A stretch of DNA of 64,000 nucleotides, taken from positions 310,848 to 374,847 of the forward strand of contig METB01000001.1 in NCBI GenBank assembly GCA_001771185.1, given 5' to 3'. Under the pieces are notes generated by a model. It had not been told where the DNA came from. It was given only the letters and a program-made list of their open reading frames with translations, and made no database searches. The position numbers and the translations under genes are program-made. Every line of letters begins with the position of its first letter. Positions within the stretch are counted from its first letter, which is position 1. This document shows, one piece after another, positions 17,866-32,051 of this stretch. The stretch comes from a candidate division Kazan bacterium RIFCSPHIGHO2_01_FULL_44_14 (lineage in GTDB: Bacteria; Patescibacteriota; Kazan-3B-28).

Positions 17866-20094
17866 CTATTGTACCGTAATCGTCCAACCAAACATCGGAC
17901 CAAACCAAGTCACATGTTCGGCTACAAACCGAAATTCTTCTTGATACGAACCGGGCTGACTGGGTGCTCGGACCATGAAGCTTAGAGTCAACTGTCCTCC
18001 AGGCGGAACTTTGACTCCAGCATTAATAATCCGATTGTTACTGATCCACGATAAGTATCGGAAGGGGCTGACTCGATCAAGCGGAGTAGCCGTTCCAATT
18101 CGAACTTCGCCCAACCGCTGGGTCCCAGCTCCTTGGGCCTGCCAAGTGGTTTGACCAAGATTAACCACCGTCACCGACAGTTGAGCGGTATCACCAGGAC
18201 GAAGCGTAACCGAACCGCTTTGATTAACAATAGTCAATTGATAATCGACTGGGTTACTGCTAACCGAGTTGAGATCGGTTTGGGTGGTCAGCCCATTAAC
18301 CGGCTCAACCGAAATGTCCCAATAAATTCCTAGATCATTTAACCAACTAGCATATTCAACTACCGGCCGAAAATATTCCCGATGGTGACCGACCTGGCTC
18401 GCTTTGATCGGAAAAGTGAACCGAACGGTCCCTCCGGGCAGAACTACATTGGGAGCCATGTAAGTAACTCGATTGGCTGACAGCCAGTCATCAGTTGTAA
18501 ATGAACTGATTCGATCCAATGGCCGATCAGTACCCAATTTGATGATGCCGTGTCCGTCCAAACTGGCTTGCGGGTCGCTGATCCACATCACATTGCCAGT
18601 ATTTTTTACTTCCACCCATAAATCTTGAGTCGCTCCCAAGACCAACCTGGGATAAGGACTCTGCCCAACCCATTTCATGGCATAAGTCGTTTTTGACGGA
18701 GCAGTAAATTGGATCGGAGCTTTGACGGTTAACGATGAATGAGTGGTATTGTTGGTGAAAGTTAATTCTCTGGATCCGGGGACAGTTGATGCAACTCGAA
18801 AAGAAATTTGACCCAATAGATTTGATTGGCCGAGTGACATTGTGCCAGTAGCCGATACGGGTTGTCCATTAATAAGAACATTAGAACCGTTGGCTCGGAC
18901 TAAGATTTCTTGGTTGGGCTTGGCATGCCCTACATCATCCCGCACCGTGACGGTGACAGTAGCAAAGTTCACTCCATCTGCCACTACCACACCGTTAGCG
19001 ATCGAAACATCTCCGCGTTCAGTTACCGAGTTAACCGCTAATAATTTGGGGATATTTAAAATACCAGCCCCGAAGGTGGTTTGACTACCGCTATTGATCA
19101 CATCACTACTGCCTTTGAGTGCACTTTCTAACACACTGGGGGATAGTCCGGAAAAGCGACCCAACATCAAGGCGGCAGCAGCGGTGACTTGAGCAGTAGC
19201 GAACGAAGTTCCGTCACCAATCATATAATCGCCGGTGGGGCCATTCACCAAACCAGCCATGGTGATGTCAGTCCCTGGCGCTGACAGATCGATACCTTCA
19301 CCCACACTTGCAAATGGCGGATGTTGGTCGTGAGCATCGACCGCAGTGACGGCGATGACATTAGGATAGGCGGCCGGGAAATAAACGGGTTTACCGCTCC
19401 GATTACCGACTGCGGCGATCATCGGAACTCCGCGATTGACCGAATAATTAACTGCGCTCGATAAAATTGCGCTGTCGCTAGCCGAACCAAAACTCATATT
19501 AATAATCGAAGCGCCATTGTCGACAGCATACCGAATGGCTTGGGCGATATCCTGAAAATCGCCGCCGCCATTATCATCAAGCGCCTTTAATATCATCAAC
19601 CTGGCGTTCCAATCAATCCCAGCAATTCCGGTACTATTATTGGTCTTGGCAGCAATGATACTAGCGATCCCGGTACCATGACCATTAGCATCAATGATGT
19701 TGTTGGTATCATTGAAAAAATTGTAGCCGTAGTAATCATCAGCATAGCCGTTGCCGTCATCGTCCTTGTTATTATTAGGAGTTTCACGTTGATTCACCCA
19801 CAACTTCCCAGCCAATTCAGGGTGGCTCAAATCAATTCCGGTATCGATCACTGCGATCACCAAATTGGTACCTTGGGTAATGTCCCAGGCGGCAGGAGCC
19901 CCAATTCGTTGAAGATACCACTGCTTGGAATAAAGTGGGTCGTTGGGCAACGACTGGATTGTCAACTGATGCTCGCTGACTGATTGGGTAATCCATCCGG
20001 CAATATGGATCGGCAAATCGGATTGGGCTAATACTGGCGAGACCCAACTTAGCGACAAAATAGTACTAAAGACAACTACGAGGAATTTACGCAT
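17866..20094 (-). CDS. Secreted subtilisin-like serine protease (S8) with tandem C-terminal Ig-like domains.
   Basis: It has a signal peptide and the catalytic triad contexts VIDTGIDLSHPEL (Asp), HGTGIASIIAA (His) and GTSFATAQVTAAAAL (Ser). Two ~110-aa C-terminal repeats (..LGTDRPLDRISSFTTDDWLSANRV.. and ..GTATPLDRVSPFRYLSWISNNRI..) resemble the N-terminus of the L,D-transpeptidase at 56363. Confidence 0.85.
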   Translation of the reverse strand: MRKFLVVVFSTILSLSWVSPVLAQSDLPIHIAGWITQSVSEHQLTIQSLPNDPLYSKQWYLQRIGAPAAWDITQGTNLVIAVIDTGIDLSHPELAGKLWVNQRETPNNNKDDDGNGYADDYYGYNFFNDTNNIIDANGHGTGIASIIAAKTNNSTGIAGIDWNARLMILKALDDNGGGDFQDIAQAIRYAVDNGASIINMSFGSASDSAILSSAVNYSVNRGVPMIAAVGNRSGKPVYFPAAYPNVIAVTAVDAHDQHPPFASVGEGIDLSAPGTDITMAGLVNGPTGDYMIGDGTSFATAQVTAAAALMLGRFSGLSPSVLESALKGSSDVINSGSQTTFGAGILNIPKLLAVNSVTERGDVSIANGVVVADGVNFATVTVTVRDDVGHAKPNQEILVRANGSNVLINGQPVSATGTMSLGQSNLLGQISFRVASTVPGSRELTFTNNTTHSSLTVKAPIQFTAPSKTTYAMKWVGQSPYPRLVLGATQDLWVEVKNTGNVMWISDPQASLDGHGIIKLGTDRPLDRISSFTTDDWLSANRVTYMAPNVVLPGGTVRFTFPIKASQVGHHREYFRPVVEYASWLNDLGIYWDISVEPVNGLTTQTDLNSVSSNPVDYQLTIVNQSGSVTLRPGDTAQLSVTVVNLGQTTWQAQGAGTQRLGEVRIGTATPLDRVSPFRYLSWISNNRIINAGVKVPPGGQLTLSFMVRAPSQPGSYQEEFRFVAEHVTWFGPMFGWTITVQ

Positions 20095-20182
20095 AGGTTT
20101 ATTCTATCATCTTAATACTCCGCCTGGTTTGACAGAACATTACCAGTTAAACTAGAATCAAGTACGTTGAGTTGGAATCTTA

Positions 20183-20307
20183 TGGGGACCCCGAAATGGT
20201 CTAGTTCCGATGAATAGAGGAACGAACATTTTGGGGAAGAGGAGCAACGCCGAGTCCTAATAGGTCAGTGAGTTTACCGAACTGACCGTTAAGACGAGGC
20301 CGTTGCG
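20183..20307. ncRNA. Copy 1 of a ~125-nt element predicted to fold into stem-loops (CCCCGAAAUG..GUUCC..GGAAC..CAUUUUGGGG, then GCAACG..GGUCAG..CUGACC..CGUUGC); candidate ncRNA or structured spacer.
   Basis: It is nearly identical to 30522-30645 and partly conserved at 30863-30940, where the substitutions are compensatory. It abuts a tRNA(-fragment) boundary. Confidence 0.45.
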
Positions 20308-20379
20308 TCTTGGGTCCGTAGCTCCAGCCCGCAAAGCTACGCTTAGCGTTGCTGGCGGGTAGTGGTAAAGCAATAAATT

Positions 20380-20628
20380 ATGCACTACACCTATGTTCTA
20401 CAATCAAAACTAGACGGACATCTCTATGTGGGATGTACTGCTAACTTGATGGCTCGTATAGAGACGCACAACTCTGGTGCGGTATCGTCTACCCGTTCGC
20501 GTAGACCCTTAGAACTGGTGTATTATGAGGCATGTTTGTCTGAAAAGCTGGCACATACTCGGGAACAACAATTAAAAACAGGGTTTGGTCGAGCTTATTT
20601 AAAGAGACGTCTTGGGTCCGTAGCTTAG
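20380..20628 (+). CDS. GIY-YIG domain protein (UPF0213/YhbQ-like small nuclease).
   Basis: It reads YTYVLQSKLDGHLYVGCTANLMARIETHN...RPLELVYYE...REQQLK, a GIY-YIG core of the right length. Its last codons and stop lie inside the tRNA-Lys gene. Confidence 0.7.
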   Translation: MHYTYVLQSKLDGHLYVGCTANLMARIETHNSGAVSSTRSRRPLELVYYEACLSEKLAHTREQQLKTGFGRAYLKRRLGSVA

Positions 20629-20687
20629 TGGTAAAGCAGTTGCCTTTTAAGCAATTGATGCAGGTCCGATTCCTGCCGGACCCACCA
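20614..20687 (+). tRNA. tRNA-Lys (anticodon TTT).
   Basis: The cloverleaf was read by eye: acceptor GGGTCCG/CGGACCC, D-arm GCTTAGTGGTAAAGC, anticodon loop CTTTTAA, T-arm CAGGTCCGATTCCTG, and an encoded CCA. A terminator hairpin follows. Confidence 0.8.
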
Positions 20688-20691
20688 AATA

Positions 20692-20718
20692 AAAATCCAC
20701 CGTCTGGTGGATTTTGTA
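20692..20718 (+). terminator. Rho-independent terminator after tRNA-Lys.
   Basis: It is the hairpin ATCCACCGTCTGGTGGAT followed by TTTGTATTT. Confidence 0.6.
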
Positions 20719-20787
20719 TTTGAGTGTGGTTCGGTACGGAATTGGACCTTTGGCGTCAGCCAATAGGTTCGTTCACAAAGCCACCTT

Positions 20788-21702
20788 CTACATCGTTGGT
20801 TGCCAGTGGGCTAATTTGTCCAACAAATTTTGCCGATCAAGTTCCTCGGCAACACTAGGCGGATTAACTTTGATCCGCTCATTTTGACTGGTCAAACCAA
20901 AGTCGAGCATAAATGAAATGGGAACCCCTTCAATCAAGTAAATATCAGTCACTTTAATCCGAGCCAATTGGAAAGTGCGTTTGTTAATCCAAACATCTGC
21001 TGTGTAAGTAGTCAGCGAGTCCAACCCAGTCGGAACAGGGGAACCGGTAATTTGGCTAATCCGAGTAAGCAAAGATCGCAGATTATCGCCCTGGAGTTTG
21101 CCTTGATAATGATATGACCGTTGACCAAAAGCGGTTTCGTCTGGGAATGTCTGGGTCGCTTCCAATAAAGTTGAATCGGCGATTACATCATGGATCATTA
21201 ATGATTGCTCGGAGGTCAGCCCGCCTGATGTCGGCAAAGTGCCTAATTTATTGCCGTCACTGTCCAAACTAGGTTGTTTGATCCGATACCAACGGCTGTC
21301 AGCGCCAAGTGATATTGGTAGCAAAGTCGGAAGATCTAAGTCGGTTAATTTGAAATAAGTGTAGTCGGACAACCCGATCAATTGACCAGTTAATTTAATA
21401 TTGCCCTGATCAGAGGTGGCCTGGACATCGGCCTGCAAAGAAAATTGAGGAGTGGCTGGATCCTCATTAATCACATCCCCAGTCAAATGAAGTTGCGCAC
21501 TAGTAATTCTCCCGCCTAAAGCACTTGGAAGATTACCGGTTAAATTAAGCGTGGCATCGTAATGAAAACTCTGCAGGTCGGATGACGCTTGAGTGAACCG
21601 CTGGATTACTTCATCGGCGCTCAAGGTCTTAATCGAACAACCAGATAATAGCAATCCAACTGTTAGTATTAACGCCCCCAATTGTCGTCCTGGTCTAGTC
21701 AT
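20788..21702 (-). CDS. Hypothetical lipoprotein.
   Basis: It has a lipobox (LLLSGC) after a signal peptide and no recognisable catalytic motif. Confidence 0.5.
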   Translation of the reverse strand: MTRPGRQLGALILTVGLLLSGCSIKTLSADEVIQRFTQASSDLQSFHYDATLNLTGNLPSALGGRITSAQLHLTGDVINEDPATPQFSLQADVQATSDQGNIKLTGQLIGLSDYTYFKLTDLDLPTLLPISLGADSRWYRIKQPSLDSDGNKLGTLPTSGGLTSEQSLMIHDVIADSTLLEATQTFPDETAFGQRSYHYQGKLQGDNLRSLLTRISQITGSPVPTGLDSLTTYTADVWINKRTFQLARIKVTDIYLIEGVPISFMLDFGLTSQNERIKVNPPSVAEELDRQNLLDKLAHWQPTM

Positions 21703-29838: not shown

Positions 29839-30181
29839 AATATCTCTCTTTGATTTAAAATAATACTCAAACTTGGTTCGACCCTAAAGCGCTACTTCTC
29901 AAATTAGGAAGAGAGCGCATATTGCTTAATTTGCATACAATGCCGAGTTTATAGATACCTAAAATGGGTGTCAACAAGTTTTTTGACGTGGTAGCCCCAG
30001 CCCTCCTTTGCTCTGCTATGTAGCAGAACTTCGGATGAGCAGGCGGGAGTCCCGCCGACGTTATATTCTGCTGTACAGCAGAATATAACTTATGAGCGGA
30101 CCTTGCTCCCCCGATCCTTCGGCCGGGTCCTCTCTGTTACAACTACAAACAAAAACAAAGCCCTCTGGCTTCGTTTTCGTT

Positions 30182-30521: not shown

Positions 30522-30645
30522 GGGAACCCCGAAATGGTCTAGTTCCGATGAATAGAGGAACGAACATTTTGGGGAAGAGGAGCAACGCCGAGTCCTAATA
30601 GGTCAGTGAGTTTACCGAACTGACCGTTAAGACGAGGCCGTTGCG
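30522..30645. ncRNA. Copy 2 of the ~125-nt stem-loop element (between tRNA-Lys-CTT and tRNA-Arg-CCG).
   Basis: It is nearly identical to 20183-20307 and ends 6 nt from the tRNA-Arg(CCG) 3' end. Confidence 0.45.
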
Positions 30646-30651
30646 ACGAAG

Positions 30652-30727: not shown

Positions 30728-30749
30728 ATGTTATCTGGATTGTCTGCAG

Positions 30750-30826
30750 TGGGGTGGGCGATGGGATTTGAACCCACGGTCACTCGGACCACAACCGAGA
30801 GCTTTAACCACTAAGCTACGCCCACC
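30750..30826 (-). tRNA. tRNA-His (anticodon GTG) with an encoded G-1.
   Basis: On the reverse complement: g-GTGGGCGTAGCTTAGTGGTTAAAGCTCTCGGTTGTGGTCCGAG..TTCAAATCCCATCGCCCACCCCA. The extra 5' G pairs with the discriminator C. Confidence 0.8.
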
Positions 30827-30862
30827 CCACTGCAGACAACTGTTCAACAAATTATTAAAGAA

Positions 30863-30940
30863 GGGGACCCCGAAATGGTCTAATTTCGATGAATAGAGGA
30901 ATGAACATTTTGGGGAAAGGAAAAATGCTGAGCCCCAGTA
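30863..30940. ncRNA. Copy 3 (partial, diverged) of the stem-loop element.
   Basis: The first hairpin is retained with compensatory changes (GUUCC/GGAAC becomes AUUUC/GGAAU). The second half is diverged. Confidence 0.4.
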
Positions 30941-31092: not shown

Positions 31093-31200
31093 ATCTGGTC
31101 AGACATCAGGCAAGGTACATCATAAATCTAGCATAAGCAATAACAAAAAGCTCCGCTTCCAAAATGCAGAGCTGAATCAATTGGGATAAATTAACTTAAT

Positions 31201-31596
31201 TTAGCAAAGAGGGGAATGGATTTGTTGACGCTTCAGAGCTGACTGGATTTCGCCCTTAGTCATGACAAAGAACTGAAAGAAACCTAATTGGGGAACAGTC
31301 AACCCTCGAAAAACTTTTTTTGATTCACGCTCTACCCGCGGTTCTTGCCAGTTGGGATAAATCTCATGCATCAGTTCATGAACAAGAGTAATCACCCGAT
31401 CGTTTATCCCAATCCGCCGATTAATAAAAATTTTTAACTCATCTGGCACAATATAGCCCTTGGCAGCTCTGTGTCTAGTGCCTCGTTTACCAGTCCCGCC
31501 ATTTTGAGGGACACTAGTTAAAATCACCTCATAACCAGAGTAGAGGAGGGTGTTCTTTAGTTTAAGGAACCAATTGTTTGTTTTTGTTTTTGCCAC
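31201..31596 (-). CDS. Hypothetical HExxH metallopeptidase-like protein.
   Basis: It has LVHELMHEIYPNW (HExxH plus a downstream E), is 131 aa, and sits between tRNA genes. Confidence 0.4.
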   Translation of the reverse strand: MAKTKTNNWFLKLKNTLLYSGYEVILTSVPQNGGTGKRGTRHRAAKGYIVPDELKIFINRRIGINDRVITLVHELMHEIYPNWQEPRVERESKKVFRGLTVPQLGFFQFFVMTKGEIQSALKRQQIHSPLC

Positions 31597-31846
31597 TGAT
31601 TTTCAATTGTCATCCCAACGCTTTTATAGCACTTCTAATAATTATAGCATAAAACTCCCTAACTGTCAAGTAGTAAAGAGTGGCTCCTGGACAATAAAAC
31701 TCTAATCAAAACAACAGATCAAACTGCTGTCTGTGATTTTGAGAGTGGCCCATGCTTCGCCCTGTGGGCTACCGCAGGGCAGTCTTCGCTTTCCATCTTA
31801 AAATCTTCCCTGGCGTAGCCAGGCGTAGCTTCAACGAAGCGAAGCC

Positions 31847-31920
31847 TGGAGCGGGGTACCGGATTCGAACCGGCGTCCTTGCCTTGGAAGGGCAATATAC
31901 TACCATTGTACTAACCCCGC
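31847..31920 (-). tRNA. tRNA-Gly (anticodon TCC).
   Basis: On the reverse complement: GCGGGGTTAGTACAATGGTAGTATATTGCCCTTCCAAGGCAAGGACGCCGGTTCGAATCCGGTACCCCGCTCCA. Confidence 0.75.
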
Positions 31921-32051
31921 CTGCGTTGTCACACAACTTCGGCGGACAGGCCCGCAGAAATAAAGTAGCTTATCTATACACTCCCACATCATAAACAAAA
32001 CCCCCGTCTAGGGAAACCCAAGATAGGGGATTTTAGTTTTTGAAACTGGTC

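Follow-up and report, generated by a model that had tools for sequence, protein, structure and literature searches.

A promoterless GIY-YIG nuclease gene linked to a conserved palindrome at a duplicated tRNA-Lys 5' end: a probable mobile cassette in Patescibacteria

Introduction

In a stretch of 64,000 nucleotides from the candidate division Kazan bacterium RIFCSPHIGHO2_01_FULL_44_14 (contig METB01000001.1 of assembly GCA_001771185.1, positions 310,848 to 374,847; hereafter the window), an open reading frame (ORF) for a small GIY-YIG protein runs directly into the gene for tRNA-Lys(UUU), and the start of that tRNA gene is found a second time upstream of the ORF. This arrangement raises the question of how a nuclease gene can settle in the end of an RNA gene that its host needs and leave the gene intact. 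In a preliminary description, the locus was suggested to hold a very small mobile nuclease cassette whose target is a tRNA gene, the 5' end of which it restores. In this study, we undertook a comparison of the locus with related genomes and with the wider protein family, and the suggestion is supported by empty and occupied syntenic loci and by recurrence of the arrangement at other tRNAs. The locus probably holds one copy of a widespread family of cassettes, each composed of a promoterless minimal GIY-YIG gene (~80 aa) and a 36-nt double-hairpin palindrome. Judging from the sequence comparisons, we also consider it probable that the cassette is mobile and homing-endonuclease-like, that it preserves its target by duplicating the gene end and not by splicing, and that the palindrome, as proposed here, is its cis-acting site. 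The analyses go beyond the preliminary description on three points: the ORF has a conserved cis element linked to it; the targets include tRNA 3' ends, putative transfer-messenger RNA (tmRNA) genes and the 3' end of a protein gene; and the protein is a Slx1/UPF0213-like core, not an I-TevI-like two-domain enzyme.

Results

Anatomy of the tRNA-Lys locus

The 18-mer CGTCTTGGGTCCGTAGCT, previously reported as a direct repeat flanking the insert, is present in two exact copies at 20306–20323 and 20608–20625, with no further match at three or fewer mismatches. Two matches arose in 0 of 100 shuffles, and chance as the origin of the repeat is ruled out by this result together with the uniqueness of the 18-mer. 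The features of the locus are as follows.

20129–20158, plus strand: sigma-70-type promoter TTGACA-N18-TAGAAT of the tRNA-Lys transcription unit (11/12 consensus match), now also upstream of the cassette
20306–20323, plus strand: upstream repeat copy (part a), with displaced tRNA-Lys nt 1–12 at 20312–20323 and a converted tract, CGTCTT, at 20306–20311
20324–20359, no strand assigned: conserved, GC-rich 36-nt palindrome CCAGCCCGCAAAGCTACGCTTAGCGTTGCTGGCGGG, which splits the displaced tRNA fragment seamlessly after nt 12
20360–20372, plus strand: displaced tRNA-Lys nt 13–25 (part b, TAGTGGTAAAGCA), where the fragment resumes after the palindrome
20373–20379, plus strand: 7-nt linker ATAAATT that leads from the displaced fragment to the start codon, with no obvious Shine-Dalgarno sequence
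20380–20628, plus strand: ORF for the 82-aa predicted GIY-YIG nuclease, UPF0213/Slx1-like, whose last 15 nt including TAG overlap the tRNA
20608–20625, plus strand: downstream repeat copy, made up of CGTCTT from the last codons of the ORF and then nt 1–12 of the functional tRNA
20614–20687, plus strand: complete, functional-looking tRNA-Lys(UUU) with CCA encoded (ARAGORN; Rfam tRNA, 75.9 bits, full-length model match)
20692–20715, no strand assigned: terminator-like hairpin 3' of tRNA-Lys, the end of the transcription unit

The second repeat copy is the 5' end of a complete tRNA-Lys gene, as first described, and the ORF stop codon lies inside that gene: its last four codons (GSVA) and the TAG at 20626–20628, which is tRNA nt 13–15, are read from the tRNA. 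The extent of the repeat required revision. Twelve tRNA nucleotides do fall within the 18-mer, but the full duplication is not 18 bp; the upstream copy covers 25 of 25 positions of tRNA nt 1–25, split after nt 12, and the flanks of the palindrome, once joined, give tRNA nt 1–24 with 0 mismatches. The displaced tRNA 5' fragment was therefore rightly recognized as such (nt 1–25), whereas the "short hairpin" noted after the first repeat copy is not incidental and belongs to a highly conserved palindrome family.

The 82-aa ORF is the sole gene between the repeats; there is no tyrosine or serine recombinase, which speaks against an integrase-type island. An Rfam scan of 19900–21000 returned only the tRNA besides two chance-level matches (E ≤ 1), and no RNA family known to Rfam other than tRNAs was matched in the locus or the window. 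No further GIY-YIG copies were found in the window.

Empty and occupied alleles in related genomes

Seven tRNA-Lys loci, identified here by L numbers, came to light when metagenome contigs were searched with nt 1–44 of the tRNA. The closest relative of the window, L090 (84% nucleotide identity over 3.3 kb of flank), is empty: a leader of the window type leads straight into an intact tRNA-Lys gene, with neither palindrome nor ORF. The more distant L091/L094 and L093 are empty as well, and in empty sites the promoter is 13–14 nt upstream of tRNA nt 1; the TTGACA-N18-TAGAAT promoter itself is common to L001, L090, L091, L092 and L093. Occupied sites were found in L003, a near-identical contig with an ORF product 99% identical to that of the window, and in L001/L002, whose flanks are 67–69% identical to the window and whose gene order is the same (S8 peptidase, cassette, tRNA-Lys, 303-aa gene). 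The L001/L002 ORF product is 77% identical to the window protein, and L001 is arranged as promoter, tRNA nt 1–12, palindrome, tRNA nt 13–23, ORF and tRNA. The L001 palindrome, in reverse complement relative to that of the window, encloses a second palindrome at its center. Over the cassette region the window and L001 are 75% identical, which is above the identity of their flanks, and the tRNA-Lys gene is 100% identical over its full length in L001 and L090.

Because these syntenic relatives include both clean empty and occupied sites, 302 bp have been gained or lost at this position, a figure that replaces the 282 bp originally given for the insert. Presence or absence does not track relatedness, since L090 is empty though closest and L001 is occupied. 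Neither observation that had been named as speaking against a mobile cassette was made: empty sites exist, and the 18-mer is not a common genomic word. As in Seg-like genes, the ORF lies outside any intron or intein and is present or absent at one site in related genomes.

The upstream copy of L003 and the empty L090 have CGACGA where the window has CGTCTT. As CGACGA is thereby the native sequence, the CGTCTT of the window represents a 6-nt conversion from the downstream copy, and the two repeat copies therefore exchange sequence. Those first six nucleotides of the 18-mer are thus repeated today, as described earlier, but were not part of the original duplication.

Some further features of these loci were recorded. 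At the tRNA-Lys locus of L092 (2570–2770), tRNA nt 1–22 are followed by 20 nt, the full tRNA, 35 nt and tRNA nt 44–76; these nested partial duplications, with neither ORF nor palindrome, may be a footprint. Downstream of the occupied tRNA-Lys in L001 (6440–6610) are two more tRNA 3' fragments (TTCCTGCCGGACCCACCA and a decayed one), the first preceded by the palindrome-like CCCGCCAGCAAGGCGGG. The leader before the tRNA-Lys fragment in the window is a copy of an unrelated ~125-nt repeat (GGGGACCCCGAAATGG...GGCCGTTGCGACGA) that abuts tRNA ends at 20183–20305, 30527–30651 and, in part, 30863–30940; it has no Rfam match, is kept in the empty L090 and is absent from L001, L091 and L093, and another of its copies abuts the 3' end of tRNA-Arg(ccg).

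A family of cassettes at many targets

Of 599 candidate stretches from a scan of one genome per GTDB species, at least 577 encode relatives of the ORF, and the locus statistics that follow refer to the best 80 loci of those stretches, 300 kb in all. A tRNA on the same strand starts within 30 nt of the ORF end in 45 of the 80 loci, and these represent 45 of the 70 tRNAs in the 300 kb; 17 anticodons are involved, Gln being the commonest, and the stop codon lies inside the tRNA in 12 loci. The preliminary description had proposed a search for GIY-YIG copies beside tRNA fragments, and they are frequent: in 32 of 47 loci the 300 nt that precede the ORF contain an exact copy (≥11 nt) of the cognate tRNA 5' end, compared with 0 of 47 in a control using the tRNA 3' part. 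In 35 clean cases part b begins exactly one nucleotide after part a in tRNA numbering, the palindrome splitting the fragment after tRNA nt 6–21 (modes 9–14 and 18–21). Displaced fragments start between −14 and +7 (all but two between −14 and +2) and end at nt 16–33, and the linkers from fragment to ATG measure 0–26 nt across loci and have no conserved motif.

The layout is constant in that the ORF lies between direct repeats of the end of its target gene and is co-oriented with that gene, while the palindrome always interrupts the copy outside the functional gene. This holds for targets other than tRNA 5' ends. A mirror form (L048, from a metagenome-assembled genome labelled Akkermansia muciniphila) has a full tRNA, the ORF and then a 3' tRNA fragment split by the palindrome, and solo palindrome fragments follow tRNAs in L040 and L096. 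In L004–L009 the ORF follows the 3' end of glyS, and after it comes a second, diverged copy of the final 66 nt of glyS, split by the palindrome. A cassette-free glyS site (L111–113, GlyRS 91% identical) makes a second empty/occupied pair with these loci, and the glyS fragment has diverged by ~25% from the resident gene as well as from the empty allele. Downstream of smpB in L055 and L063 the cassette precedes a putative tmRNA, which is assigned by its tmRNA-resembling 5' sequence alone, and in L012 the cassette occupies a tRNA-Ala/23S spacer.

Stacked or tandem units precede one tRNA in L016, L020, L061 and L069, and pseudogenised copies were found in L020 and L075. One lineage has two targets, tRNA-Ala split after nt 21 (L050) and tRNA-Thr split after nt 11 (L065), with an identical 38-nt palindrome variant and ORFs that are 75% identical. 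Many family loci are at contig ends.

Separately, copies in phyla outside the Candidate Phyla Radiation (CPR), including Desulfobacterota and Chloroflexota, have the ORF between terminal inverted repeats of 12–14 bp, for example CCCTGTTAAATA ... TATTTAACAGGG, and no separate palindrome (L046, L083, L071, L085, L060, L072, L076, L056, L073, L080, L043). From their flanking translations, several of them appear to interrupt genes resembling "four helix bundle / 23S rRNA IVS protein", at one conserved SNIAEG-like motif. In L029 (2440–2560) the halves of a split palindrome enclose a complete tRNA-Gln, and the 3' remnant of another, different tRNA-Gln comes next, as though a replacement tRNA were cargo of the palindrome.

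The palindrome

Conservation is higher in the palindrome (consensus CCCGCCTGCAACGCTATGCGTAGCATTGCGGGCAGG) than in the ORF. Eight loci from different CPR lineages share identical 36-mers, and the ORF of each has only ~55–65% identity to the window protein. An nhmmer profile has one match in the window (E = 4e-11) and 58 in the 80 loci, 57 of which are adjacent to the ORF in orientations of 34:23; the remaining match is a canonical palindrome at 2423–2458 of L055, inside the putative tmRNA region. Since 57 of the 58 matches adjoin the ORF, the palindrome is part of the cassette and not a dispersed high-copy repeat.

Its conserved form is not the obvious one. The symmetric hairpin is 82.4% paired, with zero compensatory changes and no better than shuffles, and a simple stable hairpin fared no better, the fold of 20290–20385 being not more stable than shuffles (z = −0.94). 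As the symmetric hairpin shows no covariation, we replaced the simple hairpin with a model of two registers. Register A pairs positions 1–5 with 28–32 and 11–14 with 18–21 (99.2% paired), and register B pairs 5–9 with 32–36 and 16–19 with 23–26 (97.6% paired). Compensatory changes were found at four pairs (C:G, U:A and A:U types), and the observed register scores were reached in 0 of 500 shuffles, in a sample of only 14 distinct palindrome sequences from which the registers were themselves derived. In the window palindrome both registers are fully Watson-Crick, with compensatory pairs of its own. Each DNA strand consequently has the same 32-nt motif of a 5-bp stem, internal loop, 4-bp stem and triloop, the two motifs being offset by 4 nt.

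Palindromes nested at the exact center of an outer one were found in L001, L011, L028 and L029, and other GIY-YIG subfamilies have their own, different hairpins at the same position (the second ORFs of L010/L020, L025/L082, L059). Two contig pairs from protein clusters of 90% identity, L114/L116 and L117/L118, are 100% identical rightward from the first nucleotide of the palindrome (for 350 and 1000 nt, respectively) and unrelated leftward. With a break at this point in two independent pairs, the palindrome's outer edge behaves as the terminus of a mobile or break-prone element would.

Related palindromes were also seen elsewhere in the window. A solo palindrome with the same arm type (CCTGTCCGCC...GCAGGCGGG) lies at 31916–31955 (minus strand), where the tRNA-Gly(tcc) gene begins; the five bases that close it, GCGGG, double as tRNA nt 1–5, a second GCGGG is just upstream, and the tRNA is intact, with neither an ORF nor a long duplication. 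At 29989–30055 (minus strand), ~125 nt downstream of a complete tRNA-Glu(ttc), a decayed tRNA-Glu 3' fragment reads …GGGACT / 51-nt palindrome with family-type arms / GGCTACCA, a mirror arrangement that lacks an ORF. In the databases, many gene calls of this family (the proteins P0009, P0010, P0023, P0053, P0060, P0119 and others) have spurious N-terminal extensions, for example PACNAMRSIAGR or PPATLCVALRAG, that are translated palindrome, and several of them are mis-named "excinuclease ABC subunit C".

The nuclease

The earlier assignment of the 82-aa product to the UPF0213-like GIY-YIG proteins holds. Residues 1–70 match PF01541 (54 bits against a cut-off of 22.6, E = 2.1e-14), and the other Pfam matches are weak and to related families only, with no HUH (Y1) transposase among them. 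An AlphaFold2 model (mean predicted local distance difference test score, pLDDT, of 95) has strands at residues 2–9, 15–20 and 44–52 and helices at 23–32, 55–65 and 68–77, low confidence being limited to the extreme C-terminus that is read from the tRNA (residues 81–82, mean pLDDT 48). Y5, Y16, G18, R26, H30, E50 and E62 are invariant in 29 homologs. In the model, the fold and catalytic positions of the GIY-YIG superfamily are present and nuclease activity is predicted.

Profile searches of the PDB matched 1zg2 (2.9e-9), 1ywl (1.9e-6), Slx1 (8e-3), I-TevI (0.14) and UvrC (0.28), and Foldseek matched Slx1, UPF0213 and I-TevI catalytic domains in the same order. Among solved structures, the UPF0213 proteins BH0048 and EF2693 and the Slx1 nuclease domain are closest, Slx1 nuclease domains giving template modeling scores of 0.65–0.70, root-mean-square deviations of 2.1–2.8 Å and 28–32% identity. 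One compact domain spans residues 1–77 of the 82, leaving no room for a DNA-binding domain; the tethered, sequence-specific DNA-binding domain of Seg-like enzymes is thus absent.

There are 393 close homologs, mostly from Patescibacteria (CPR), and 5,477 cluster representatives in the family at E ≤ 1e-3. Eight homolog pairs were compared for the ratio of nonsynonymous to synonymous substitution rates (dN/dS), which was 0.05–0.13 in six of them; two pairs, one being the window ORF and that of L001 (proportion of synonymous differences 0.83), are synonymously saturated and give no ratio. The ORF is under strong purifying selection. No PADLOC defence family was matched at E ≤ 0.01, NCBIfam and PHROGs gave no specific model match, and phage records gave four weak matches only; a phage or defence origin was rejected on the four weak matches and the empty PADLOC result.

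Neighboring features

Two other features of the window were noted. At 30741–30838 (minus strand), a tRNA-His lies between 11-nt inverted repeats (TGTCTGCAGTG ... CACTGCAGACA) that would lengthen the acceptor stem of its precursor, and a similar extended stem surrounds tRNA-Lys in L092. At ~31200–31610 (minus strand), in a tRNA cluster between tRNA-Gly and tRNA-Arg(tct), there is a small ORF with an HExxH-like motif (…LVHELMHEIYP…).

Discussion

How the cassette may persist and spread

The gene for tRNA-Lys is essential and highly expressed, and the cassette inside its transcription unit does not destroy it because its terminal segment, nt 1–25, is duplicated: the ORF-adjacent copy runs on into the remainder of the gene to give a normal tRNA, and the displaced copy stays beside the native promoter and leader. 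The promoter is conserved in empty and occupied alleles, and the ORF would be transcribed from it, with promoter, fragment and palindrome, ORF and tRNA forming a single transcription unit. RNase P would then free the tRNA, which in the window copy would remove the stop codon of the ORF. The nuclease may be structure-specific, acting on the hairpin or cruciform of the palindrome and possibly on tRNA-gene DNA that forms hairpins, with the host repairing the resulting breaks. Spread to the same tRNA gene elsewhere could proceed through homology-directed copying (homing), for which the tRNA sequence, being identical, would supply the flanks. Illegitimate events close to the end of a gene would be rare and would survive only if a short duplication on the spot restored the gene. 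Such selection best accounts for the concentration of insertions in the D-arm, the T-arm and last codons, since only events near enough to a gene end for a duplication of 25–65 nt to restore the gene would be viable.

The manner of insertion is harder to reconstruct. Single-point insertion, target-site duplication with the ORF alone, circular-donor double-strand-break repair and ends-in integration were each considered and do not fit the layout. A single crossover between the target and a circle of fragment, palindrome, fragment and ORF is alone in reproducing the layout in one step, and it leaves the acquisition of new targets unexplained.

Several considerations weigh against a mobile, homing-like cassette. 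No single simple insertion model appears to account for the target-derived segment between palindrome and ORF. The functional tRNA copy of an occupied allele keeps an uninterrupted D-arm, and a nuclease targeting the D-arm would cut its own host; classical homing-site logic therefore fits poorly. Displaced fragments have decayed in L014, L034, L045 and L064. As to whether the cassette supplies a gene end of its own, at glyS the ORF-proximal copy resembles relatives in 13 of 18 aa and the palindrome-bearing copy in 10 of 18, a pattern that fits duplication followed by decay of the distal copy. Identical proteins were not found in differing contexts, P0003, P0066 and P0120 each having one context, and the comparison of identical proteins did not catch a very recent transposition. 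The dN/dS values, taken over saturating divergence, are unusually low, that is, selection is unusually strong, for a purely selfish homing endonuclease, and leave room for a host-beneficial or addictive role. Finally, the case for the cassette is wholly comparative.

Alternative explanations

The best-surviving alternative to a mobile cassette of the homing kind, albeit an improbable one, is guided targeting. The unit of part a, palindrome and part b, as RNA or single-stranded DNA, would serve as guide and scaffold; its arms would pair with the cognate gene, the palindrome would protrude as a branch, and the Slx1-like nuclease would cut at the three-way junction. The cassette would then be a programmable targeting module, a nucleic-acid-guided Slx1-like nuclease among the smallest autonomous mobile elements known, for which we see an equally slim chance. 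The nuclease is a catalytic core only, and branched DNA is what its nearest structural relatives act on; hairpins differ from one nuclease subfamily to the next, the same 32-nt motif on both strands would be displayed in either orientation, and re-targeting is frequent (at least 17 tRNAs). Fragment and palindrome have also been kept between the window and L001 despite saturated synonymous sites, but gene conversion, as seen in the CGTCTT of the window, can by itself keep a fragment identical to the tRNA. A guide would, moreover, match the resident functional gene and lead to self-cleavage, and fragments have decayed in several loci whose ORFs are intact; the glyS fragment shows ~25% divergence from resident gene and empty allele alike.

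Slightly less probable still is a host function, in which a domesticated nuclease and its structured leader would regulate or process the adjacent tRNA transcript or protect tRNA genes. Such a role would suit the purifying selection on the ORF, its invariable co-orientation and apparent co-transcription with the target gene, the inheritance of occupied alleles across species-level divergence and the confinement of identical proteins to one context. It is difficult to reconcile, however, with a closest relative (L090) that has a clean empty site and an identical tRNA, or with targets as heterogeneous as many tRNAs, a putative tmRNA, the glyS 3' end and an rRNA spacer. The stacked copies before one tRNA, the pseudogenised L020 and L075, the many loci at contig ends and a sister clade with terminal inverted repeats that appears to interrupt protein genes likewise speak for an element and not for a host gene.

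It is very unlikely that the locus is the remnant of an integrase-mediated genomic island or prophage, with an att-type duplication and the ORF as left-over cargo. Transfer RNA genes are classical integration sites, tRNA 3' fragments lie downstream of tRNAs in L001 and at the tRNA-Glu of the window, and L105 has a serine-recombinase island at a tRNA 3' end; yet the tRNA-Lys locus has no integrase and an insert of 302 bp in all, it is the 5' end that is duplicated, and an identical layout of ORF plus palindrome recurs at dozens of unrelated tRNAs. Least credible of all is an RNA-level intervening sequence (a group I intron, an IStron or a hairpin like those of rRNA intervening sequences): Patescibacteria have many introns in tRNA and rRNA genes (10.1101/2025.07.03.662931; PMC11270868) and GIY-YIG ORFs in non-intron rRNA-gene insertions (PMC11270868), but there was no Rfam intron match at E ≤ 1, no ribozyme core interrupts the tRNA, the insert is outside the mature tRNA, and nothing needs splicing because the downstream tRNA is complete and uninterrupted.

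Relation to known systems

The mobile cassette that we propose has its closest known kind in free-standing GIY-YIG selfish elements, with a small chance of something more radical. SegB, among the closest known systems, is a protein of roughly 220 aa with a C-terminal DNA-binding domain, whereas the cassette protein is an 82-aa catalytic core of the Slx1/UPF0213 branch, for which I-TevI-type domains are distant matches only. SegB is described as a free-standing GIY-YIG homing endonuclease of the tRNA region of T-even phages, and SegB-dependent tandem tRNA-segB repeats use microhomology between the tRNA and segB (PMC2330249; PMC13096335). SegB and other Seg proteins resemble the cassette in being GIY-YIG genes outside introns and inteins, among tRNA genes, and present or absent between related genomes, and the tandem tRNA-segB repeats recall both the repeat of ORF end and tRNA start and the tandem units of the cassette. 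Unlike the cassette, SegB is phage-encoded and has no associated palindrome and no duplicated gene end.

The best sequence and fold matches of the cassette nuclease are Slx1 and the UPF0213 proteins (YhbQ, BH0048, EF2693). Slx1 cuts branched DNA and works with Slx4 in eukaryotic repair, and the linked palindrome would suit a nuclease that prefers branched or hairpin DNA. We know of no mobility of bacterial UPF0213 proteins, nor of a link between them and repeats or tRNA genes.

Integrative elements that target tRNA genes are of kilobase scale, depend on a tyrosine or serine recombinase and, with few exceptions, duplicate the 3' end. They share with the cassette a gene kept functional by a doubled terminal segment and a displaced fragment beside the native flank; the cassette differs in its size of 302 bp, the lack of a recombinase, its use mostly of the 5' end and a palindrome that always splits the displaced copy. 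REP/RAYT and IS200/IS605 elements use HUH (Y1) transposases, which are able to rejoin DNA, whereas GIY-YIG enzymes are hydrolytic. Like the cassette, they combine a small nuclease gene with a physically linked palindrome that is short, conserved and imperfect, probably act on single-strand hairpins and leave no target-site duplication at the palindrome. REP palindromes (PMC3733652) are high-copy, whereas the cassette palindrome is found almost only beside its ORF.

GIY-YIG ORFs are also reported in insertions of CPR rRNA genes that are not group I or II introns and are located at the tops or bases of stem-loops (PMC11270868). The phylum and the nuclease superfamily are those of the cassette, although these insertions interrupt the rRNA gene itself (PMC11270868). 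No duplication of a gene end, conserved palindrome or tRNA association is reported in that paper, in which the word "tRNA" does not occur (PMC11270868). The minimal nuclease, the duplicated gene end and the linked palindrome are thus features of neither SegB nor, as reported, these insertions. A search of the searchable full-text literature, a scope outside which subscription-only papers fall, returned no description of the architecture presented here.

Significance

If the mobile cassette is real, Patescibacteria and some other phyla would harbor a large class of selfish elements of ~300 bp, comprising thousands of clusters. These would represent a third way to live in essential RNA genes: introns splice, inteins excise, and the cassette duplicates the end of its gene. 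The pairing of a minimal nuclease with a defined 36-nt DNA structure is testable, and may be informative on nuclease specificity and possibly yield tools. The cassette would also explain oddities of annotation, such as the "GIY-YIG" and "excinuclease ABC subunit C" mis-annotations and the extended ORFs that translate the palindrome, as well as contig breaks beside tRNA genes in CPR assemblies. More generally, it would point to the ends of tRNA genes as hot spots of rearrangement in reduced genomes.

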